DNA of 47,509 bases. It comes from Conidiobolus incongruus B7586 (taxonomy: Eukaryota). Where the stretch lies: contig JNEM01009958.1 in the NCBI GenBank assembly GCA_000697335.1, forward strand, positions 1-47,509. Reading direction: 5' to 3'. Positions 3,001-39,721 of this stretch are shown one piece after another; position 1 is the stretch's first letter, and every line of letters starts with the position of its first letter. Position numbers and translations under genes: made by a program. Below the pieces are notes generated by a model. That model worked only from the letters and a program-made list of their open reading frames with translations. It had not been told where the DNA came from and did not search any database.

Positions 3001-3578
3001 TGTCACCAATTAATCATTAATAGAGCTATATATAAGAGATATAATAGGTCAATTGAAAAATAAACAGGTAATCGATTGGGTAATAGGCGAATTAAGTCAC
3101 ACTATTTAAAAAACAACCTAATAAGGCAATTAATTATAGTAACATAAGTTTCAGATAATATTAGTAAAAATTTATTTTAATTTTCGTTTTAAAAAATTGG
3201 AAATTAAAGAAACTGAATGATACTTATAAGTTTCAGTTATTCTATCATTATTAATATGATTATTTATTTTGATCCCTTTACTTTAAAATTCAATTAATAA
3301 ATTAATTTTTTGATTTATGGTATTTTTATTTATAAGTAAGTTTTATAGTCTGATTTGTTTTTTGCACTGTTTCCCTCTGCCTACCAAGTATACTGAAATT
3401 TATTAATAGTATCACTTAACATTATATCATATTACTATTAATTATCTAATTAATTATATACCACCATACATTAATTTTAGTCTCTCTAGTATTTTGCTAT
3501 CAGGGTTGAATATTTTATTTTATTCTATATTTAGGCTTATTCTATTAAACTAAACTACCCTTATAGTTTTCAACTGAA

Positions 3579-6500
3579 ATGAATTCCGAATCTTCAATTA
3601 ATAGAGAGTCCTTCGATTCTCAATTCGGTATTCAACAACCCAATCCGAATGCTAATCAATTCAACTGTACTACTAACAGCACTTCTTCCAACTCAAATTG
3701 CATTCAATTGGAAAATAGCAAATCAGCAGCATATCCTTTTAGTCCCGTCGATGCCGAGGCCCCACTGAGTAGAGAAAAATTAGGTGCTATGGCACTAAAA
3801 AATTGGCCTTCTTTTTCTAATTTACGTTCCAACTCATTTTCACCCTCTTTGCTACCTTGTATGACTTCAAGCCAAAGCCGACCAGAATCACCTGAATCTA
3901 ACTCAGTAGCAAAAATGGAATTATGCAAACTTAGTTACAATAATGATCCAGAAAGTATATCTCGCGCCAATAGAAGGACTCGCACAGTATCCAATATAGA
4001 AACAAATCACCGTGATTGCTTCGGTCTAGATAATTCAGATAATTTTGCTAAAAATTCTGCAGGAAAGTCGCTTGAAGGACCTAGTAAATCATCAGAAAAC
4101 TTTAATATAGTTCAATTGAATAAAGCTCCCAAAAAAACAAAATCTGCTCGGCCGAGATCTATGTATGGGGGTCTGGTAGGCCCTTGCTCACCAGGTTCTC
4201 TTTTGGTATCTCAAAGCTCGGAACTATTCTCTTCATCAAGCAACACATCTGAAAATACATATCACACTAGAACTAATAGCAGTGCCAGTGGAACTCACTC
4301 CCGTACTACTAGTAGTTCAAGTGGCAAGTTTCCCCCAACCCCTTACGGGACTCCCAATTGGACAGTGTCCCAACTTCAATCATCACCTGGTTCTGGGAAT
4401 TCAGAAAGTATAATGAGAAAAAATCCTTCTCATATTGAAAATGATTTGATATATTCAAGGAGTCGGCGAAATAGTGAAGGGTTGTCCCATTTGGCAGTTC
4501 AGAGTCTATCAAATTTAGCTAAACAGAGAGGCGTTCTGCCACATCCTAACAGAGATATCAACGCTCAGGAGCCTGCTCCTAGCGGCGAATGTTTTTCCCA
4601 TTCAAATTCAAATATTCAGCCAACAAGTTTACTTGGATTAAAACTTCGAGAATCACAAAATCAGTCTCATAATATCAATTCCCCCAATACCCGACCTGGC
4701 TTGGAAGAGATTCCATCCCTATCTTTGTCTATGGACCCTGCCTATAACCCTAATATAAGCGATTCTTCCCTCTCCAGCTCAGGAATTAGTGGAATTTTTC
4801 AAGGGTCTGGTAATTTTCCCACGAGTTTGGGTGATGGGTCAGTTGAAATGGAATCACTGCATGTCAAATTTTCTCCCACAATAGCACCGCGACAAAATAC
4901 ACTCTCTTTAAATACAATACATTCTACCAGTCTCCAATCAACTGGTATGGGTAGAAAAAGAAGTAAAAGCCTCAGTCGACATAACCCATCTCTATTGCTA
5001 ACATCAACACCTCTGTCCATGTCTCATCAACCAAGTCACATCTCCACAGACTCATCCTCCCACTCCAGTCCTAGATCCCGGATATTAAACTCTTCACAGT
5101 TCCCTGGACTTGAAGGAAACGAAGAAGTGGTCAACCGCCTAGACTTGACAGAAGATGGCTATCGGTTAAATTTCTTAGACAATATGAAGCAAAACTTGAT
5201 CCAAGAGTTAAAGGAAGCCAAGGCCAAAACCGATATAGGCATCAAAGAAACACTATTGAACTGGTACTCCAATCAAGGAATCAAGATTGCCGACGATCCT
5301 GATCGCGGTGGATTAGTTTACGATTTTGGCAACCTTGATAAAATTTCCCCGATCGAATTTAACACGGGTCACGAGACCGATGACAATGAGCTTAAAGCAC
5401 CCCCTTTCATCCACCACCACAGCTACCATCCAGATTTGATACAGGAATCAAGTGCTCATTCTTTAAAGACACGGCCAATCAATATCCCTTTAAAAAACGC
5501 GTTCATCAAATCTATTGATGATAAACGCGAAATGTCTCAAAAAGGTGAAGATATTTTGACTAGAAATTTAAACATCAATCAACTTCATTCCAATAGTTGG
5601 CCACCATCATTCTTTGGTAAGTAATTATTTACTAATATAATTATTGAAATAGTTTATTAATGCGTTAATAATAATAGCTTCAGTACATACGATATTACTT
5701 CATAATGTGGAACAATTAGCTCAGGAAATATTAACCACTTCCGTTGCTAAAATGGTTTCAAGTGATATTTGCTTAGATATCACGCAGCAATTACAGAAAT
5801 TATTGTCGGAACAAAAGAGATTAACTGTAGGTGATGCGGAAGCTCAATCTGTGTTAGAAAAGATTCTGTTTGAATTCTCCCCTTGCTGCCGTATTGTTCA
5901 AGCTTTGGTAAGTAATCATTTTAATAGTTAGTAATTTATGTTATTACTTCAAATAGTATCAAATATTTTAAAACTACATAGGTTGAATTATGATCCCTCT
6001 TACTAATCTATATATTTTATTTATTGTATAGCATGATTATGAACAAAGTCAAAAATCAAGAGAAGAATTACTTCGTTCAAGTCGTCGATTTAGCTCTAGT
6101 GAATATTCATTATCTCCAAGCCCACCTATACCACCTTCACCTAAGCATACTATTTCCAACCGTAGATCGTCCCTAAATACTCTTGATCTTTCAGGCAAAT
6201 CACCACCTTCACAGCAGTTAAACTATGTTTCAGCAAATGCCAATCTCCATCCCTCAATAACTGAAGAATATTCACCTGTTGGAAAGAAAATAGAAACGGA
6301 TCCAAACAAAAGTGAATCTAATTTCAGTTATATTTCTTCACCAGGTACAAATAATATACCATCTTCACCACCACTACCAGATCACTTCAAGCCTTCCAGA
6401 CGTGCGAGCATCGCCAGCCTTCTCCCCAACAAAATAGGAGGCCTCTTAGGTCTCAAGAGCAAGAGTGATGAAAGGGATGAATATTTAAAAACTACTCGAA

Positions 6501-9500
6501 CCAGTAGACAACACCCATCATCTCACTCTCTTGCAACAAACCTTGGGAGGGTGGACGAAGAAACCTCATCCTACAATCACCAGCGCAGGAAATCCTCCAT
6601 CAGTGTAGTGAGATTATTGAAAAACTTTGGATTCGGCAAGGTACCTGTCCCTGACGAAACTTCCGACAGTTACTATTCCTCTAGAAAATCCTCCGTTGAC
6701 AGGAGAGACAGCATCAACTCAGTTACAAAAACTCTAGTGGAAGAGCAGACTTCTACGAAAGATGAGGTATCGTCGCAGGATACCACCCAAATTCCTGTAA
6801 AAGAAACCAAGCCTAGGGACATTGATGGAGCATCGTCCCATCATCGCACCCGATCGGAAGATTCTGGCTTATTCAAGAGTCCATCGCCAGTATTTCACAA
6901 ACTTAATGAAGTTGATCTCAAATCTCCCAGTAGCTCCTCGGGATTGGACACTCATGTTGGGATGCGAAGCCGTGCGGGAAGCGCTCCAAGTACATCAGAG
7001 ATCAAAAAGATTTTGTGTAGATTGTGTGAAGAGCAAATCAACGAGAAAGAGTTTGAGCCGCATATTGAAGAATGTACACAAAATCAACTGGACAATATGA
7101 AGTTGTACGAGTTAGAAAATGGACTCAAAAAACTCAAATCCGAATCAATTCATACCTTTGGATTACCTGACATACCCCTTTCTCAAATTTTTGAATCACC
7201 TCGACCTATGGAACAAGACAAACCAATGATTGATTTCATGAATTTAATGAACCGAACACTCAAAGTACTGTCATTTCAAGATTTATCAGAAATTACTATG
7301 ATTCACTCGTTAAAAGATATCAAAATAGAAACTAAGATGCTTTTAGGGAATCAGCAATCTCTACTTTCCGGCTTTAACTCTGAAGTACAAAATTCTGAAA
7401 AGAAAGAATCAAGGAATGAGTATCAAGATCAGTATCAACAGATGGAGAAATTCGACAAACTGATTGGTCAGATTCATGATTTGATTAAGCGGTATCAAGA
7501 CAGGTTAGGCATTAGAAGTACACTTACCATCAACACCAATATACGTCCTGAGCCATTGTCCAAGCAATGTAACTACAATAAGAACAGAGATAGTGGCTCG
7601 TTTGGCAAGGCATTCAGACTGAACATTCCTCAGCCTAATTCGATGGGAAGAACAGCATCGGGAACTCCTCCAACGGGAAGAAAGGGATCGATAACTTTAG
7701 AAATGCTTAAAATGTATCGTTCGCCATCTTCACCTTCTTCCAACAATTCCAATAGCTTCAAGGAGAATTTTATTGAGCGATCAATTGGCAAGGTGAGAAA
7801 TTTAGGCAGTCTTACTCCCAGATCTTCCCGTGGCTCTATCTCCAAAGAGTTCCAGCCCAGTAGCCAAGATCAAGAGAATGGATTCGCCGCATCCACTAAA
7901 AAGATGATGTCATTACTTGCAGGCGTTTTGAAAAAGGGTCAGCACGATGCTGGTATCAGCTGTGAACAGAGTCCACCTGCTCAACCTTATGGTAGCAAAC
8001 GAGCTAGGGGAGATACTTCTAGGAGGGATACAGCGGATTCAGCACAATCTACCATTGGCACGAATGGCACTACCAAATCGACACCTAAGAAAACTAAAAT
8101 CCCTGGAATTGAAGACTTTGAAATCATCAAACCCATTTCCAGAGGTGCTTTTGGTAAAGTGTATTTAGCTCGTAAAAAGACCACCAAGGATCTATTTGCC
8201 ATCAAGGCCATTCGAAAGGATGACGTCGTTCGCAAGAATATGGTCCAACAAGTGATGATGGAGAGAAAAGTGATGGCATTGGCATCCATTCCCTATGTAG
8301 TATCTATGTTCTTTGCCTTTCACTCCAAATCCTATCTCTTTTTAGTGATGGAATATTTGATTGGTGGTGATCTTTCCTCCCTATTACAAGTATATGGATG
8401 CTTCGAAGAAGATATGGCTCGTTTCTACATTGCAGAAACCACTCTAGCGCTGAATTATTTGCACGAGAACGGCGTTGTTCATCGTGATTTGAAGCCTGAT
8501 AACATTTTGATTGATCACACTGGACATATTAAATTGACAGATTTTGGACTTTCTCGTATTGTTGTGAATGATCAAACTTCTGGAGGGATTGGCCCAAGTC
8601 ATCATGTCCACAATTTTAACACTAGTCACTTAAATACAAAGCAAGAGGTACATCATAATGGCCATAATATTAAACATGAACCCCATACACCCAAGCGTCC
8701 TCCCAGTAATCGCGAACTTCTAGGTACACCTGATTATTTGGCACCTGAGTTACTGTTAGGTTCTTCTCATGGCTCTCCTGTAGACTGGTGGGCAGTTGGT
8801 GTATGCCTTTTTGAATTCCTCGTTGGTTATCCACCATTTTCTGACGAATCTCCAGAATTGATCTTTCGCAATATTTTGAATCATGAAATTCAGTGGCCTC
8901 CAGTCGATCCAGATGCATCATATTTCAGTACTGAGAGTGAGGATTTGATCAAAAACTTACTACAACCAGATCCTTCGAAGCGACTTCAAAGGAATCAAGT
9001 TCCTTTGCATTCTTTCTTCAAAGGGATGGACTTTGATAAACTGCATGAGATTGAACCACCATTTATCCCACGTCCCGAAGATGTATGCGATACCAGCTAT
9101 TTTGAGAGCAGAAACACCCGCCCTGATATTGTCAATTTGAATAAGAGTTCTGTGCATCAGATCATTGATGGTCATCAAGAAGATTCCTTCTTCCATGGTG
9201 AAGTTGAATTACAAGAGAATAATACTGATAATAACATTGTTTCTCAAACGAACACTTCGACACCAAGTCAATGCACTCATTCAGAAACTGATTCAAATAT
9301 AATTTCTCAAGTCCCTTCTATTAACAGTAGATCAAGTATGAATAACATTCAACCCAGTTTACAAAGCACAGATGGCAATACATTATTTACCTCCCCTGAG
9401 ATATCCACACAAATGTTTGATTCACCATCACCAGGCAATCCATATCCAGAAATTGAAATCATGGATCTTTCCAAAGCACCATCAATGCTCTTTGACCAAG

Positions 9501-9880
9501 GATCCCCATTTTCACCGATTTGCGACATCACCACCCAATCACCACCAGTGCAGCCAAGGTCCGCACTGCACCAAACGAGCTACGACTCTAACCCAGCACT
9601 CCGCCGTGGCTTCATCAACATCGGTGCAACAAACACTTTTAACAGAGGCAACCCCACGCCCAGTTCCGGCACACTCCCCCCAACGAGCAATCTCCACATC
9701 CATACAACATCGTCACATATCCCCACACATTTAGCAAGTCCTACGCGCCATTTGCGAGCCCATTCTGTCCCAAATATGCTAGAAAATAGGGAAATCTTCG
9801 ACAGTTTCGAGTACAAGAACATCCAGCGACTATCCGAGTACAACAAGGGGGTCAGTCGACAAAATTCCATGATAGAATGA
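3579..9880 (+). CDS. AGC Ser/Thr kinase of the MAST/Greatwall/Rim15/IRE group, ~2038 aa; exons 3579-5616, 5678-5907, 6032-9880
   Basis: Kinase motifs [26 protein letters not shown], an activation-segment insert, GTPDYLAPE and AGC tail PPFIP..DTSYF; C2HC finger CRLCEE..HIEEC; terminal [24 protein letters not shown] introns at 5617-5677 and 5908-6031 join three ORFs in frame (an in-frame alternative acceptor exists at 5683). Confidence 0.9.
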
Positions 9881-22214: not shown

Positions 22215-22682
22215 TTAAGGATTAAATATATATTTACAATTAGAGTGGTTAATATCACCGATTATTTCATAGTTGACATTATTCAATACCCCTGTACCAT
22301 CAATTGAACTAGGATTTAATTTTTGCATATATTCTATCGATATTTCAACACCTGGACTAGTTTTTATATCAGCAATAATCACATCAACCCAAGTGTCATT
22401 TAGTTGAATTCGAATACAGTCACCACAATTCAGGTTGGAATCTGGTCCAGCTGCTGCAACCCCTTGAAATTGTTTAATATTTTCAGCCATCAACTTAGTA
22501 TTATATGATGCACACGCTAATGGATATGTACTAAATAATTCAATGGAATTGGATCTTGTCATGACTCCCGTATAATCATGTGATTTTAAACTAGTGATCT
22601 TTGGGCTCAATGCATTTTCATCATTGGAAGGAGACGATGATATTAATTGCAGTATTATAAACCAATATATTATCAATACCAT
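22215..22682 (-). CDS. Small secreted RlpA-like double-psi beta-barrel (expansin/loosenin-like) protein, 155 aa
   Basis: Hydrophobic signal peptide; AC..., AAAG...NCGDCIRIQ...VDVIIAD...GVEIS pattern resembles the DPBB core (CG.C..V...V.V.V.D). Confidence 0.6.
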   Translation of the reverse strand: MVLIIYWFIILQLISSSPSNDENALSPKITSLKSHDYTGVMTRSNSIELFSTYPLACASYNTKLMAENIKQFQGVAAAGPDSNLNCGDCIRIQLNDTWVDVIIADIKTSPGVEISIEYMQKLNPSSIDGTGVLNNVNYEIIGDINHSNCKYIFNP

Positions 22683-22801
22683 TTGAATATTTTTTAATTC
22701 GATTTTTCAACATTAATCATTAATTTATATGTCTCTAATAAATTATTTTTTGTTTTATAATCAAAACAAATGTACAATTGATCAACAAAACTGACTGCAC
22801 C

Positions 22802-32523: not shown

Positions 32524-34134
32524 ATGAGATGGTGCTTAATAATATTGTTAGTACTATTTCGATCTCATTTATCGTTGGGATATTGGGAAGAATTCCAGTT
32601 CAGAATGAATTTAAACTGTCAAAATATTAGTAGTCAACATTATTCTAACTGTTTAAACTATCAATTCGACAATGTTGTTAAGGCCAACGCCATTGTTAAT
32701 AACGATATACTATCGACTAGTGTAACAAATTCTCCGAATAAGATTCAAAATTGGTATATTTTAGATCTATTATTAGCTTGCAATGCTCAAGTGACTAGAG
32801 ATCAAGTGAATGGAATAGTCAGCAGGAATCACAAAAATGAGTTGATGGGATATTTACAATGTTCCAATTCATGTCCAATCCATAATCAACTCTTATTAGC
32901 CAATTTAACTAGTATCAAATACTTCATGGTACTCGTTGAAGACTGTGAAAGTAAAATTTCAAAGAATTTTATCAATGATCAAGTATTTATTCCGATATCA
33001 GGACAATTGAATTTCAATAATTATTGGAGTAATCTTGTCAACCACACTATCAAGTATAACCTTGATATTAATAACTCTAACTTAGTTCTTGTTACTCTAA
33101 ATCCATATCAATCTAATTCACTAACATTGATCTTGGTGATCATTCTAATTTGCTTTATTGTGATTTTGATAGTGTTTTTAGGTTTTTTAGTTAGGTTTAG
33201 GAAAAAATCAGACCAAGAGTACTCATCCGTTGATATTATTGGCGATTATCATATCATGCACAATAACGGTGCCAATAATTGGATATCAGCGTCCCTGGAC
33301 GACAAGGAAATCAAAACACATACAGAAATTGTGGAATCCCGCCCGAAGAGTTTGGAGGAAGAGATGAATGAAGTGTTTGAAGAGTTGAGCAACAAGTCCA
33401 AGTCTTTAGGAGAGGCAGAGAATGAGCGCAGCAATGTTCCAATAACCGAACAACCATCAATTGGTAGATCGGAATATAGTATTAATATTAATCAATTGAT
33501 CAACCCTGACAGTTCTAATGCCTCATCATCGCCAGATTCTGCTACTATTCCAAAGCATTTTTCATTTCGGTCACCCTATAACTCTTCACTTGGATCGCCA
33601 CCGAAAGAGTCGTCGATGAACTTCCCTAGGATGGTTGCCAAAATAGATCCAATTCCACCAAGATCTATACCCTTACAATCCTCGAATGAGCGATTGCAGC
33701 CTCCTTACAAACATACGACCTGTTCCATCTGCTTCTTGGATTATCGCTATGGCGAGAAGGTTCGAAGTTTGACATGTGGACATAGCTTCCACTTGGGCTG
33801 TATCGATCAATGGTTAACCAAATATATTTCCATCAGATGTCCGGTATGCTACAAAGATCTCAAGTTAAGTATGCTAGGCGGCAGTAGTTCGAGTCTTCCA
33901 ATGAAATCCCCCCAGAGCAGCAATCCTATCCCAAGTAAAGAATTTCTGCCATCGACGTTGAAAAACACTGGGGCGGGTTTAAGAGTTGCAAACACCGAAT
34001 CAAATACATTAGGAGGTTCAAATATTATAGAGGGCCACAGTTACCATTCGAGTAATAGTAGCCAATTGTCGCTGCCAGCACCTCACGAAAGGAGATATCA
34101 TAAATTGGACAGATCGCAACAGTTGAACAATTAG
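32524..34134 (+). CDS. Type I membrane RING-H2 E3 ubiquitin ligase, 536 aa
   Basis: Signal peptide, Cys-containing lumenal region, TM helix LILVIILICFIVILIVFLGFLV followed by RFRKK, RING-H2 CSICFLDY..LTCGHSFHLGCIDQWL..CPVC. Confidence 0.88.
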   Translation: MRWCLIILLVLFRSHLSLGYWEEFQFRMNLNCQNISSQHYSNCLNYQFDNVVKANAIVNNDILSTSVTNSPNKIQNWYILDLLLACNAQVTRDQVNGIVSRNHKNELMGYLQCSNSCPIHNQLLLANLTSIKYFMVLVEDCESKISKNFINDQVFIPISGQLNFNNYWSNLVNHTIKYNLDINNSNLVLVTLNPYQSNSLTLILVIILICFIVILIVFLGFLVRFRKKSDQEYSSVDIIGDYHIMHNNGANNWISASLDDKEIKTHTEIVESRPKSLEEEMNEVFEELSNKSKSLGEAENERSNVPITEQPSIGRSEYSININQLINPDSSNASSSPDSATIPKHFSFRSPYNSSLGSPPKESSMNFPRMVAKIDPIPPRSIPLQSSNERLQPPYKHTTCSICFLDYRYGEKVRSLTCGHSFHLGCIDQWLTKYISIRCPVCYKDLKLSMLGGSSSSLPMKSPQSSNPIPSKEFLPSTLKNTGAGLRVANTESNTLGGSNIIEGHSYHSSNSSQLSLPAPHERRYHKLDRSQQLNN

Positions 34135-34206
34135 TTTGATGTTGAACCTGCAGTAATAATGATTTAAGTTTATTAATTAAAAAAATACAATAAAATACAA
34201 TGTGAA

Positions 34207-36324
34207 TTAGTAGGATTCGTCCTGTTCTTTGACTTCGAGCCTTTCCTTTTCGTCTCGTTTCTTTTCGATACAGTATAATGTAAGTACAATGGAGCCTAAG
34301 CCGATGAGGCTAGCTACTAAAGTTCCAAGTACCCATTTCGCATGTTTTGAGAGGTTGATTAACATTTCACGGGTCCATGTTGACGGATCCGAACTGCCAT
34401 TTGGCTGATACGGAATGATGATCAATTGGGAGTTAGGGATAATTCCGGACCATGTGAAATGGCAATGTTTTTGAATGCGACTGACACTAACTATCAAAGT
34501 ACTCAAATAGTTGTTCGTTCTTCCAAGTCCTACCAAATTGTAAGGTGTCAGTAATGCGTGATTTGAAGTTTGGCCCAATTGAGCAATCATTGAACATCTC
34601 TCATTCCCATCCGTATCACTAACAATATATTTAATAGTACCACCTACATAATTCACTCCGTAAGGTTTGACATTGTTTGCGGAAGGCTCAGGACAGTTCT
34701 GAAGACATACGCCATTTGAAATCAAAGTCTTTAAAAAGAAGGCATCATTCAATTCTTCAACGTGCCAGCTCAGTAAAGACGATTGGGAGTCTAGTGGAAT
34801 TTGTAAAATATCGAACTTACCTCGATTTCTCATATCGAAAAAAATCGACTCCATTTTGGATGTTGAGAATGCCGAAGGCAGCTGGTTTCCGGATTGATAT
34901 TCAAATGTTCTTTCACCATTCTTGACACTGTCGGCAGTACAGGTGCCGGCTGTGCATGGAACGCTAATCAGAATCATGTGAATGAATTTCTCCTGCTTTG
35001 AGTTAGTTAGAGTGATCAAAATATCTGGATATCCGTCTAGATTAAAATCACCCAATCTAAGAGGAATTGGCAGAGAAGTACCCTTAAAGTTCACGTCTTC
35101 GTCAAGTATCCAGTGCAAGCCTTTCAAGTTCTTTTAGCCACTTTTTTCTATCATTTTTTGATATTGACCTTGACATACCCAGCCCTCTTCTCGTCAAAGT
35201 CAAATTTAAAATTATTGTCTGGTGAACATAACTGAGAAGCCCATTGACAGTTAGTAGTCTGAGTAGGTGTACAAAGTTCCTGCTGTTGATTATAAACAAT
35301 ATGAATGGTGCAACCTTCCTTATCATCACATGTCGAAAATATCATATCTGCACTACTCTTACCATTAATGTCACCAAAACTGATAGCCTTCGTACCTTTT
35401 GGAAGTTCGTGGCGCGTTTTCAATTCGAACTGATTTTCAGTATTGGTATTGATCCAAATTTGGAATGCTTTACTATCTTCATCCTTCTCCAATTCGCAAG
35501 TGAAGAATAGATCAGGAGCGCAGTCTCCATTAAAATCGATAAAACTGTTGGAGTGGAAGGGATGTAATTTGCATACTTTGTCTGAAGGGTTTTTGGATTG
35601 TAATGCTATTCTGAAGTAATATGATTAGTTAAATAAAAATGAAAAGCGGATAGATACTTACAACTTGAATGATTTAGACTTATCATTATCATTAGGCTGC
35701 ATTTAATCAGTCCAAATAGTGAGTATAGATTTGTCCTTAGTATTCAATTCACTAGAATATCCAATCAAATCAGGTTTCATATCGCCGTTGAGATCAGCTA
35801 CAAATGGTAGGATATGAATAGCACCTGGCAAACTAATCGGATCAGAATCTAAAATATATTTTGAACATTTAATTGATACAATTTTTGAAAATAATAAATA
35901 CTTAAAACTTACCAAAATGACTCAATCAATCTCCCAAAAACAAATCCATTTCAATTACCTTATCCTTCTTGCCTTTAGCATCTTTATCTCCATAAAACAC
36001 CAAAATATCCAATCGACCATCATAATTAAAATCCATAGTCACAACATCCAAAATTATTTTATTCAACTTCAACTTCATATTGTTTTTAGTAATGGAGAAT
36101 TGTCTAGTTTCTATATTCCATACTCCCAACTCGATCTCATTTTGACTGTTGTTGAGTAGGATAATGTCTAGGGATTTGTCGCTGTTAATGTCCCCAAGAT
36201 TTTGAATGCGATATCCGACGAGATGTTCAAAGCCTACGATTTTCTTGTGAAATTTTGGATTTATGGAATGATATATTGATATCATGGATATTAGTATTAT
36301 ATACAAATTAATTACTAATTTCAT
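34207..36324 (-). pseudogene. ITFG1: ITFG1/TIP/LINKIN homolog (FG-GAP repeats plus C-terminal TM), disrupted; exons 36324-35913, 35848-35662, 35610-34207
   Basis: FG-GAP motifs GDINSDKSLDI, MDFNYDGRLDIL, ADLNGDMKPDL, HSNSFIDFNGDCAPDL, GDFNLDGYPDIL; DAFFLK, GLGRTNNY, IIPNSQLIIIP, TM then EKKRDEKER. In-frame stops at 35926-35928 (TGA), 35703-35705 (TAA) and 35134-35136 (TAA); frameshift near the A6 run at 35154-35159. Confidence 0.8.
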
Positions 36325-36328
36325 ATTT

Positions 36329-37474
36329 TCATTTATCTATTGAATTGGATTGAAATCTTAAAGCTTCTGCACTTAATCTGATCCCCAGAGCTGGTTGCAA
36401 CGAGGGGCTACGTTCCCAGTCAGTATGCCTTAGCAGATGAGTGTCAAATAACTTGGAGGGATTTTCGAAATATGTATCCGAATAGTACTCTTGGACATCA
36501 GGCAATACATACACAAAGCAATCTGGCCTGGGGTTATCTGGAAAGTATTTGCAATTTTGGTCATCCATGTAAAACTTTCGGTCTAACTGATCAAGTTTAT
36601 CTGCAACATGTGTGTTATTAGCAGCAAGTGCCTCCTGATAAGTTGCTTCATCAGCTGGTATATCTAGAGAATCATAAAGCTTGTTGTATCCAGCTATGGC
36701 ACATACTCGTCCAACTAGAATACTTAATTTCGGAAACTTTTTTACAATCTCAATGCATGTTGATTCTGAAGGTATATGTGGGTACCAGATGCAGTACGGA
36801 TCGATATCAAACTCTGGAACGATGTTGTTCATAATCAACGTGTTTGCAACGGTTCTAGAAATAACAGGGGACTTCATCATGTCTGTACGCCCCTGACAAT
36901 ATAAAGCAAAGTCCAAGTTAGTAATTACACCATGGGAGATGTATAAATCGAATCTTTTTATATCGAATTTCCACTTGTTAACAGCATCAATATGTCCATG
37001 GTAGCACGCATAGTTGACAAGCATAGTCATGTCGTCCCACACAAAGCGCGGAAGCTTTCCAGATATGTAGAGACAAACATACTTGATGCTAGTATTGTAG
37101 CTGACAGGATACCATTCATTTTTTGAACTTGTGTCTGTCGTATCAATATTGTACCATTCCGACACTTCCTGGGGTGGAAAGCTGATTTCACTAGCGTCAT
37201 CCATCGCAACGTATTTATGCTCAGCTTTTGACAGCTCATCAAAAAGTGGCAGTTTGCGAACATAAGCTTCTACTATAATGTTGACTTCAGGTAATACAGA
37301 AAGAAGCTTGTACGCTTGCATGTAACCACTTCTAACGCATGCACGTCCAAGAAGATACTTATCGGATTCATCCACTTCTCCATTCTGAATCTGTTGGCAT
37401 ATATTTTCTTCTGGTGGAAGGCGTAATCTAAGTTTTGCCCAATACTTTCTAGGTTTAGAATACTTAAACACCAT
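36329..37474 (-). CDS. Intronless 381-aa protein of unknown function with two internal repeats (P..W...P.E..C..I......GR.C...GY...Y..L....E....EA)
   Basis: Uninterrupted ORF; repeat 1 KYLLGRACVRSGYMQAYKLLSVLPEVNIIVEA, repeat 2 PYCIWYP..SILVGRVCAIAGYNKLYDSLDIPADEATYQEA. Confidence 0.75.
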   Translation of the reverse strand: MVFKYSKPRKYWAKLRLRLPPEENICQQIQNGEVDESDKYLLGRACVRSGYMQAYKLLSVLPEVNIIVEAYVRKLPLFDELSKAEHKYVAMDDASEISFPPQEVSEWYNIDTTDTSSKNEWYPVSYNTSIKYVCLYISGKLPRFVWDDMTMLVNYACYHGHIDAVNKWKFDIKRFDLYISHGVITNLDFALYCQGRTDMMKSPVISRTVANTLIMNNIVPEFDIDPYCIWYPHIPSESTCIEIVKKFPKLSILVGRVCAIAGYNKLYDSLDIPADEATYQEALAANNTHVADKLDQLDRKFYMDDQNCKYFPDNPRPDCFVYVLPDVQEYYSDTYFENPSKLFDTHLLRHTDWERSPSLQPALGIRLSAEALRFQSNSIDK

Positions 37475-37495
37475 TTTCCACCTTGGATTGAAATC
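36345..37495 (-). mobile_element. 1125-bp insertion (36358-37482) flanked by an exact 13-bp direct repeat TTGGATTGAAATC (36345-36357 and 37483-37495), probable target-site duplication
   Basis: The repeat copies coincide with both ends of the orphan ORF and with the switch to AT-rich flanks; no TIR, LTR or poly(A) visible. Confidence 0.75.
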
Positions 37496-39721
37496 AATCT
37501 TGGGAGAGAATTTATTTTAGTTGGAGAAATTGAATAATTATGGGCCAATTTATACATGAAATATATTTTGGCAATTGTTTAATTTTAATTGGTTTAAAAT
37601 GGCGATTTTGAAAATTAATAACTTCATTTAATAATAAATAGCATATATTAGTTGTTGGACGATAAAAATTATTATAACACCAGTGATGAGAGGTATTTTA
37701 ATAATGGTTATTTATTCAGTAATGATTTGAAATACCAGGAAGTTGGAAGTTCGAATGTCAGTACCAACTTTTAAAAATCAAATCACTGCTCAAAAATTCC
37801 AAAATTGAAAATTAAGCAAATATTGCTTGATAAAATTGTTAAATCTATGAATGTATTCAAATAATTAGGAATGTTCAAATTAATATATATATATATACCA
37901 AAAATTAATACAATATCTATAACAAAATTATTTTTTTTGAATAATTATAAAAAGCTACTATATCATTACCAATTTCCTATTGTTTTGAATATGTTATTCA
38001 GTTTTGAATTGGATAAATTCTATAAATGAATACCAATTGGTCTGATTAAGTTGTATTTTTTGAATAATATAACTCAACATTGGTATGGAAGGTAATTTTA
38101 TTGATACCCAATATATATATTGATGCTATTACTCTATTCTATCAACGAATATTAGCATAATTCTTAAAGTTTGAATTTTATTTAATCAAATTTCATTCAA
38201 ATTCCAAATTGGACAAAATTCCACCTCATATTAATTGAAAGGAAAATTATGTGAATTTTACTATTTCAAATATTTCAATTTTTTTATTTTTGTTCAAATC
38301 TATAATTGTCATTGTTATCTTATAATCATCCCACTTTTTTGTTGAAAATGAGTTTATATGTTATTACTTAATTTGGAAAATGTTTCGTAAAATCGTACAG
38401 CTCAAAATATATTTTAAAATAATGATAGTTTATAATATAGAAATCAATTATTGATATTATAATAAACTTACTGATTCAACCAACCATTTCAATCATACAA
38501 ATTAAATATAAAAATAATAAAAATATATTTCAATTTTACCAATATCAACAATGAATATATCCTAATTAATTACCACTAGAATGGCGAGATCACCAAATTC
38601 AGGTTGGAATTGTTTTTAGTGCTTCAAAATGGTACCTAAAATAATGTAAACTGAAACAAGTTTAAAACTTGAATCATTTATATTGAAATTATTGTTTCTT
38701 AATCTTTTGTTACGAATTGATTGGATCTTCCCTTTTTTATCCATTAGCTTAACTCGATAATTGATAGTATCAGTTATTGGTAGTAATATCGAAATATGGT
38801 GGTGGTGTAATGGTTAGTTATTGTATAGCCATTATAGATATTGATAGAATAATTTATATATTTTGAATAGAGTTTAATCGGAAATATATATTTTCAGATC
38901 GTAAACTATATCTGATCTAAATGAATAATACTGAATTTTAATGATACACTCAATCATAATATTGATCTAGTTTGAAATAATTTTAGATTTGAACTATAAT
39001 AAAAGATAAGGTTACAAAATAACTATATTAATTGATTATCATTGAAGCTATGAAAGTAATATTATAGCATCAATGTATGTATTAAAGAGATGCTGATTAC
39101 ACTCTATAATCAAAATTATAGGAATTAAATTTGAGATCAATTGTTAAATTACTTTTGTATTCAAAAAGGATTTGGAATTTTTTGTTATTAATAATTTGAG
39201 TTTCAATTGATACACTGCAATTTTAAATTAATAATCAAAAATTTATAAAAATTTTATTTCAAAATATTACTACCATTTTGTAGAATAAATCATTCAAAAA
39301 TATTTATATTGAAATAATTGATATTTCGAAGCATATAAAATATATATTACAATATTTCAAATTTTTATATCATAGTAATATATTTGAGTTTAAAGTTACT
39401 ACCATCTTTTACTTAAACAATTATTAATTTTGAACCAAATTGACCAATTAAAGTCAACCTCAGTTCGAAATTACCTTTGGCCATGATTGGCTAATGAAAT
39501 CTAACCGAGACTAAGTAATCCAATTAAATTAATTTTTCCTATCAAGATTTTCATTGTTTTTGGGATTAGATCATGGTTTTATTTTAAAACTTGAAAAATT
39601 GGTCATTATATATATAAGAAAAATATGATGAAGATTTGGGGATGGATATAAATTATCATAATAGTTCCCAAAGCTGATAATTTTTGAAATTTTTTGTTGA
39701 TAACTTGTAATATATCTAAGG

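Follow-up and report, generated by a model that had tools for sequence, protein, structure and literature searches.

On contig JNEM01009958.1 of Conidiobolus incongruus B7586 (assembly GCA_000697335.1), we identified an intact open reading frame (ORF), P0001, that on the basis of significant sequence similarity can be placed in the Imm/PF28449 (YKP1_C) family of killer-plasmid immunity-like proteins. The ORF occupies positions 36329..37474 on the minus strand of the 47,509-nucleotide (nt) stretch that was analyzed (hereafter, the window), encodes 381 amino acids (aa) from its ATG to a TGA stop codon, and has no introns. It stands in a neighborhood of ordinary nuclear genes, directly ahead of the start codon of a gene resembling ITFG1, and a second copy of the same locus lacks it. 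We consider it modestly probable that P0001 is an orphan nuclear Imm-like gene, i.e., that its product, a cytosolic helical-repeat protein, would bind and block a zymocin-like ribonuclease arriving from outside. An earlier note on this DNA, made by a model from the letters alone, had described a stop-free frame of 1.1 kb spanning 36358..37474; the open frame was confirmed, as was the upper end of the span, while the lower end fell 29 nt inside the 3′ end of the ORF, which lies at 36329.

A protein search with P0001 gave five matches at E ≤ 0.001 among 2581 candidates, all labeled PF28449.1, and the matches included proteins from Dothistroma septosporum and Panaeolus papilionaceus (E 3.4e-19 and 7.3e-17, respectively). 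With a six-sequence profile, at least 100 matches were obtained among 7994 scored candidates, and all 100 listed carried the same label (precomputed), while an exhaustive phmmer search recovered 324 proteins at E ≤ 0.001. Organism names were available for 42 of the 100 matches listed, which we assigned to Pezizomycotina (41) and Agaricales (one, P. papilionaceus). The likeness to hypothetical proteins of filamentous ascomycetes that the earlier note had suggested was therefore corroborated, but its label “uncharacterised” is outdated, since the relatives carry PF28449.1, named “YKP1_C” in the Atlas, where 94–95% of the members in the three clusters shown bear the label, with scores of 0.94–0.95. 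P0001 matched the paralog P0002 at E 8e-139, versus about E 1e-29 to 1e-30 at best for Dikarya members of the family, to which it is 18–31% identical. The paralogs comprise P0002 (58–59% identity), P0003 (47–50%), a split pair (P0359 plus P0357/P0222), and P0238 (93 aa). DNA fragments 81–85% identical to the most conserved part of P0001 were also present on other contigs of the read sample, which fits with the paralogs seen as proteins. Family members were likewise found in other early-diverging fungi, namely Ramicandelaber brevisporus (Kickxellomycotina) and the chytrid Boothiomyces macroporosus, in the latter on contigs of 225 and 320 kb.

The two copies of a ~60-aa repeat described in the earlier note are genuine: in a BLASTP comparison of the N-terminal 110 aa of P0001 with its residues 208–337, they were 30% identical over 61 aa (E 6e-05 for this single comparison). 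Unit 1 (residues 8–70; 37265..37453, minus strand) keeps the GRACV..GY..LP.V.I..EA core and is missing the PYCIWxP motif, and unit 2 (residues 226–282; 36629..36799, minus strand) has both PYCIWYP and the core GRVCAIAGY. Both units align, in the same order, with the two units of the Dikarya relatives, which carry PYCIWxP in unit 1, where P0001 has none. The two-unit forms of Dikarya and of the clade to which P0001 belongs look like products of internal duplication. Three residues of P0001, R44, C46, and A70, were invariant in 101 sequences. The YVAMDD and FYMDD motifs that had been noticed after the repeats were both found, the former (residues 88–93; 37196..37213, minus strand) in a predicted beta-hairpin and within a Y..M.D motif conserved family-wide, and the latter (residues 301–305; 36560..36574, minus strand) at the beginning of the low-confidence C-terminal tail. 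Read by eye, the first 30 residues are K/R-rich with no hydrophobic run; with no N-terminal signal-like stretch, P0001 is predicted to be non-secreted.

The composition of P0001 is host-like. Its GC content (0.396), GC content at third codon positions (GC3, 0.373), and relative synonymous codon usage (RSCU) correlation (0.54) are all in the range of 13 neighboring ORFs, for which the RSCU correlation was 0.38–0.78; across the window, GC content is 0.31–0.44 in genes and 0.15–0.23 between them. With GC3 and codon usage like those of the host, P0001 cannot have come recently from a donor richer in GC. A lowered A/T content is described as what allows Imm genes to be expressed from the nucleus (PMC4431711), and the 60% A/T of P0001 fits with nuclear expression.

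An AlphaFold model of P0001 made from a 101-row alignment (mean predicted local distance difference test [pLDDT] score 74.7) had confident helical parts at residues ~20–105 and ~126–300, a beta-hairpin at 87–104, and a disordered tail from residue 303, and in its two confident folded domains pLDDT was mostly >90. Foldseek returned no match to the model in the PDB at E ≤ 0.001, and a sequence-profile search of the PDB with P0001 returned none at E ≤ 1. The top rows of VIA-align were nearly all ankyrin/DARPin chains that spanned model residues 202–303 at Z ≤ 6.6 (best Z 6.6, root-mean-square deviation 3.7, 94 aligned residues at 202–298), values for which Z < 8 marks a common helical-repeat background. 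As modeled, P0001 looks more like a binding scaffold than an enzyme.

Evidence for a second copy of the locus came from read contigs of four runs (X1 to X4), compared with the window at 80% likeness; all four belong to a single sample, which may be the one from which the assembly was made. A contig that lacks the ORF was present once in each of two runs (3492 nt at depth 50.8 in X1; 1776 nt at depth 13.3 in X2). It matches 36033–36328 with 24 differences, skips 36329–37508, matches 37509–37548, and is then unlike the window. Missing from the second copy is thus a 1180-nt segment (36329..37508; joint 36328→37509, side 40) that runs from 34 nt upstream of the P0001 ATG to its stop codon, and 41 other letters stand in its place; the ATG of the ITFG1-like gene follows 4 nt later (spacer 36325..36328, minus strand). 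The earlier description of the ORF as “inserted” therefore held relative to this copy, which lacks exactly 36329–37508. Since the paralog proteins start and end at about the same points as P0001, the insert carries essentially no untranslated regions (UTRs) of its own. An island of 40 nt at 37509..37548 (minus strand) is common to both copies with two differences, in an upstream region that is otherwise unalignable, and may be the core promoter or 5′UTR of the ITFG1-like gene. Three further joints (35900→37877, 36290→37874, and 36329→37878) were discarded, their sides of 20–24 letters being too short in AT-rich DNA.

The window-type contig had a depth of 63 in X1 and 14.8 in X2, similar to the ORF-less contigs, so that there are two locus copies at similar dosage, only one of them with the ORF; the shared downstream contigs flanking the locus had depths of about 90–130 in X1. 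In three runs (X1, X3, and X4) the window-type contig has half the depth of its flanks, whereas in X2 it does not; given this disagreement, we dropped depth as proof of hemizygosity and rely on the ORF-less contig instead. In exon 1 of the ITFG1-like gene, the 24 differences in 296 nt correspond to 14 synonymous and nine non-synonymous codon changes, with no stop, so both copies of the gene look coding. The 3′ exons (34100–35962) are near-identical, contigs of 130–788 nt showing no differences. Judged by these sequence differences, the split between the copies is old near the indel, and the sharp change in divergence beside it suggests a recombination or gene-conversion boundary, or else an old balanced polymorphism.

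Two kinds of mobile DNA were considered for the segment and rejected. There were no terminal inverted repeats or long terminal repeats, meaningful flanking repeats, or target-site duplication at 36329 or 37508, no A-run or poly(A) after the P0001 stop codon, and no sign of a transposase or reverse transcriptase, so the segment does not qualify as a transposable element or retrogene. Nor does it qualify as captured DNA of a virus-like element (VLE), or NUPAV, there being no plasmid genes or terminal repeats, a GC content of 0.396, and no relative among viral contigs, where none of 31 pattern matches was a relative of P0001. The upstream-conserved-sequence promoter motif of VLEs was not seen by eye in the 34-nt leader. 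The virus or mobile-element route suggested by the earlier note does agree with the literature, in which the family is tied to virus-like killer plasmids.

To place P0001 among its relatives, maximum-likelihood trees were computed by quick search with support from the Shimodaira–Hasegawa-like approximate likelihood-ratio test (SH-aLRT) only, on rows that we picked (named matches and some others, many of the 324 matches being left out), and they came with warnings of long branches and odd composition. In a 53-row tree, P0001, P0002, P0003, and P0357 formed a clade (hereafter, the window clade) with support 100 on a stem 3.2 long, and this clade and Ramicandelaber lay on one side of a branch with support 95, or 99 with P0224 added. 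In a 39-row tree that included Boothiomyces and AT-rich short forms, a branch with support 99 separated all 24 Dikarya rows from the window clade. When Ramicandelaber and P0224 were left out, the window clade sat on an unresolved backbone, inside no starred subclade. In an approximately unbiased (AU) test, grouping the window clade by force with a Dothideomycete subclade was not rejected (difference in log likelihood 12.85, p 0.186). The P. papilionaceus match (P0005, two member sequences) nested among the Pezizomycotina rows of the 53-row tree, in a six-row clade with Talaromyces and Sordariomycete rows (support 100), a placement that agrees with the published transfer of toxin clusters into Panaeolus. 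The short forms themselves (P0269, P0307, P0328, P0314, P0349, and P0360) are 250–330 aa long with one PYCIW unit and an AT-rich-type amino-acid make-up, and they group with the Boothiomyces protein. Among metagenome contigs we found seven family loci (27–41% identity, GC content 0.49–0.58), none of them in the window clade; at one of the four whose flanks were scanned (L001, 1–3663), a LysM, chitin-binding, and GH18 chitinase adjoins the family member, an arrangement consistent with the published toxin-cluster layout. One Paecilomyces entry combines PF28449 with GH18.

These trees do not support a transfer of P0001, or of the ancestor of its paralog clade, from a filamentous ascomycete of the Pezizomycotina, which is how we read the horizontal acquisition proposed in the earlier note: a branch (SH-aLRT 99) keeps every Dikarya row apart from the window clade, although the AU test still allows this clade to nest among them. 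We judge such a transfer distinctly unlikely. It has in its favor the 41 Pezizomycotina among the 42 organism-named matches listed and the patchy spread of the family outside Dikarya, none of the matches listed being named Conidiobolus coronatus, whose proteome is present in the database. There is, besides, a reported precedent for Pezizomycotina-to-Zoopagomycota Imm transfer at only 26% identity (PMC13348850), and transfer has been proposed alike for the immunity genes of Coemansia cluster 2 and Panaeolus. Long-branch and compositional attraction could also produce the outside position of the window clade. Against this, the window clade stands beside Ramicandelaber, Boothiomyces, and the AT-rich short forms and joins no starred subclade of the other rows even without Ramicandelaber and P0224, its stem is very long (3.1–3.4 changes per column), its architecture differs, and the composition of P0001 is host-like.

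In killer-plasmid systems, the genes of the helper plasmid are named YKP1 to YKP11, and YKP1 is ORF1 of K. lactis pGKL2, an Imm gene homologous to three zymocin-like immunity genes shown by experiment, according to the published accounts (10.1101/2024.09.27.615389; PMC11848437). Canonical immunity factors bind and inhibit their toxin (mBio mGem text). These proteins (K. lactis pGKL1 ORF3, M. acaciae pPac1-2 ORF4, and D. robertsiae pWR1A ORF5, along with pGKL2 ORF1/YKP1) would belong to the same superfamily as P0001 by way of the literature and the Pfam name; the predicted role that P0001 would share with them is that of an intracellular antitoxin to an anticodon or rRNA nuclease. Their genes lie beside a toxin gene on cytosolic linear plasmids of >75% A/T (PMC4431711 for the A/T content), whereas P0001 is chromosomal, 60% A/T, and alone.

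Many Pezizomycotina are reported to have nuclear counterparts, in which a putative immunity gene, “Imm-P,” is clustered with genes for a gamma-toxin ribonuclease and a C-II GH18/LysM chitinase. Clusters of this kind have been transferred into Panaeolus, and in P. papilionaceus the Imm gene is duplicated (10.1101/2024.10.25.620242). P0001 is like Imm-P in homology (E 1e-17 to 1e-30), in having two PYCIW/GRxCAxAGY units in the same order, and in being nuclear and non-secreted. Imm-P is ~520 aa long versus ~380 aa for P0001 and lies beside a gamma-toxin or C-II chitinase in a Dikarya host, whereas P0001 has no introns and belongs to a non-Dikarya fungus resembling Conidiobolus and Basidiobolus. 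With no gamma-toxin or GH18-LysM chitinase adjacent to P0001, its locus is not a zymocin-like toxin cluster. Also comparable are the orphan nuclear Imm genes and NUPAV captures of budding yeasts (PMC11848437), which, like P0001, have no toxin beside them and several paralogs; P0001 differs from NUPAV-type captures in its lack of flanking plasmid genes or terminal repeats, in its fully host-like composition, and in being inserted as a bare ORF 4 nt before the start codon of another gene. Outside Dikarya, the text of PMC13348850 reports identifiable immunity genes only in VLE cluster 2 of Coemansia and in Kappamyces. These candidates are found on contigs that are high-copy or VLE-like, with a chitinase and a toxin as neighbors, whereas P0001 is nuclear and solitary; the Coemansia ones were judged to be transfers from Pezizomycotina, whereas P0001 falls outside the Dikarya rows in trees without Coemansia or Kappamyces sequences. 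In Table S2 of the same paper, plasmid (VLE)-type polymerase matches are given for Conidiobolus obscurus (11), Basidiobolus ranarum (11), C. coronatus (three), and Ramicandelaber (two), and its main text makes no mention of Conidiobolus, Entomophthor-, or Ramicandelaber.

How, then, might P0001 act? The segment would have been inserted between the promoter/5′UTR island of the ITFG1-like gene and its start codon, and such a position would mean that P0001 is transcribed from the promoter of the host gene, perhaps as the leading cistron of a message that spans both genes. When a zymocin-like RNA-cutting toxin secreted by rival fungi enters the cell, P0001, as a non-secreted antitoxin, would bind and neutralize it. 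P0001 and its small set of paralogs may form a repertoire maintained for defense against exogenous toxins, the role that Heneghan et al. suggest for the orphan Imm genes of yeasts (PMC11848437).

Several observations weigh against this account. The name YKP1_C, which we take to be derived from the YKP1 protein of K. lactis, and the literature are what links P0001 to the canonical immunity proteins and to pGKL2 ORF1, and a literature search for PF28449 or YKP1_C found no paper. A Pfam scan of P0001 and five relatives gave no family match, because the PF28449 model is absent from the Pfam copy used, and for P0001 returned only a sub-threshold KMP11. P0001 keeps 45 of the 140 columns that are ≥80% conserved among 98 other members, and it is without both the N-terminal module of ~100 aa and the first PYCIW motif of the family. 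The 26 ORF pieces of the window that were scanned contained no GH18, LysM, chitin-binding, DNA polymerase, or other plasmid gene and no toxin or secreted-toxin candidate, which is why we call P0001 an orphan. In addition, Heneghan et al. describe immunity as undemonstrated for the Imm homologs (PMC11848437), and pGKL2 ORF1 does not make cells immune to zymocin (mBio mGem text and its reference 22). Finally, the second copy of the locus may be an allele or a paralogous locus, and that the indel is an insertion here is a polarity that we favor by preference.

That polarity has an alternative, which we hold to be doubtful, in which P0001 was ancestral at the site and was then lost by deletion from the second copy. 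The 41 unrelated letters at the site of that copy are what post-deletion filler would give, and the divergence in exon 1 makes the copies old. The missing segment nevertheless ends at the P0001 stop codon and begins 34 nt before its ATG, an exactness that is odd for a random deletion, and an ancestral layout in which 1.2 kb of ORF separates a conserved 40-nt island from the start codon of a housekeeping gene would be unlikely. It is rather unlikely, in our view, that P0001 is instead an Imm-family relic with no immunity function, a captured or duplicated copy that, much like the dispensable pGKL2 ORF1, persists either neutrally or as a selfish element; its position in the 5′UTR of the ITFG1-like gene would in that case be an accident, mildly harmful but tolerated thanks to the second ITFG1 copy, which is uninterrupted. 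The lack of an immunity role for pGKL2 ORF1 speaks for this, as do the window's lack of a toxin or chitinase partner, the fragmentary relatives (P0238 and the split pair P0359 plus P0222/P0357), which suggest turnover, and the lack of a promoter or 3′UTR of P0001's own inside the insert. A relic would not be expected to have kept a frame of 381 codons open with R44, C46, and A70 intact, two confidently folded domains, and natural N and C termini that agree with those of the paralogs.

We also thought of a bolder possibility, very unlikely as it stands, in which a polymorphic “immunity slot” exists upstream of the ITFG1-like gene. A promoter-less Imm ORF would here hijack the host promoter to give a two-cistron message, the other copy may carry a distantly related Imm-like gene, and the two would form an idiomorph-like pair of killer-toxin immunity alleles under balancing selection. 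Two observations hint in this direction: near-identity gives way abruptly to a divergence of 8% beside the indel, and P0314 (269 aa, a single unit, 28% identical to P0001) is encoded on a contig of 3492 bases, the ORF-less contig also being 3492 nt long.

The remainder of the window bears out its chromosomal character. Besides P0001, its genes encode a MAST-type kinase, an MFS transporter, a bHLH factor, a ribulose-phosphate epimerase, an S9 peptidase, a GDP-fucose-synthase-like epimerase, a RING protein, the ITFG1-like FG-GAP protein, a PAK-type kinase, and a NOT2-like protein. The best named relatives of the S9 peptidase are from Conidiobolus coronatus (53%) and Basidiobolus (43–45%), followed by Mortierellomycotina and Mucorales, which points to a non-Dikarya host near Entomophthoromycotina and upholds the earlier impression that the surrounding genes are not from Dikarya. 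The neighbor that had been thought decayed proved intact: the ITFG1-like gene (34207..36324, minus strand) is joined from four ORF blocks through three GT-AG introns to give 597 aa, from the ATG at 36324 to the stop at 34207, with a signal-peptide-like start, FG-GAP_3 repeats, a C2_ITFG1 domain, and a C-terminal membrane span. On the other side of P0001, no ORF of ≥60 aa was present within 37560–39720. At 22218–22706 (minus strand), in an AT-rich gap 14 kb from P0001, lies an ORF of 163 aa with a signal-peptide-like start and no Pfam match at E ≤ 1e-4. At 3567–9880 (plus strand), two ORFs, of 685 and 1282 aa, and the small DUF1908 piece that separates them seem to be exons of a single MAST/Rim15-type kinase gene, which would have very long low-complexity regions.

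Until 2025, zymocin-like killer systems were believed to be restricted to budding yeasts. P0001 is a further member of this recently described family, in a lineage for which the main text of the papers cited contains no reports. It is also an unusual case, an ORF only 4 nt ahead of the start codon of another gene, and its locus offers a natural with/without pair for asking whether orphan Imm genes protect against exogenous toxins. If the account given here is true, a deep-branching nuclear Imm-like clade, along with the homologs in Ramicandelaber and Boothiomyces, would add immunity genes to the evidence for ancient toxin systems in terrestrial fungi.

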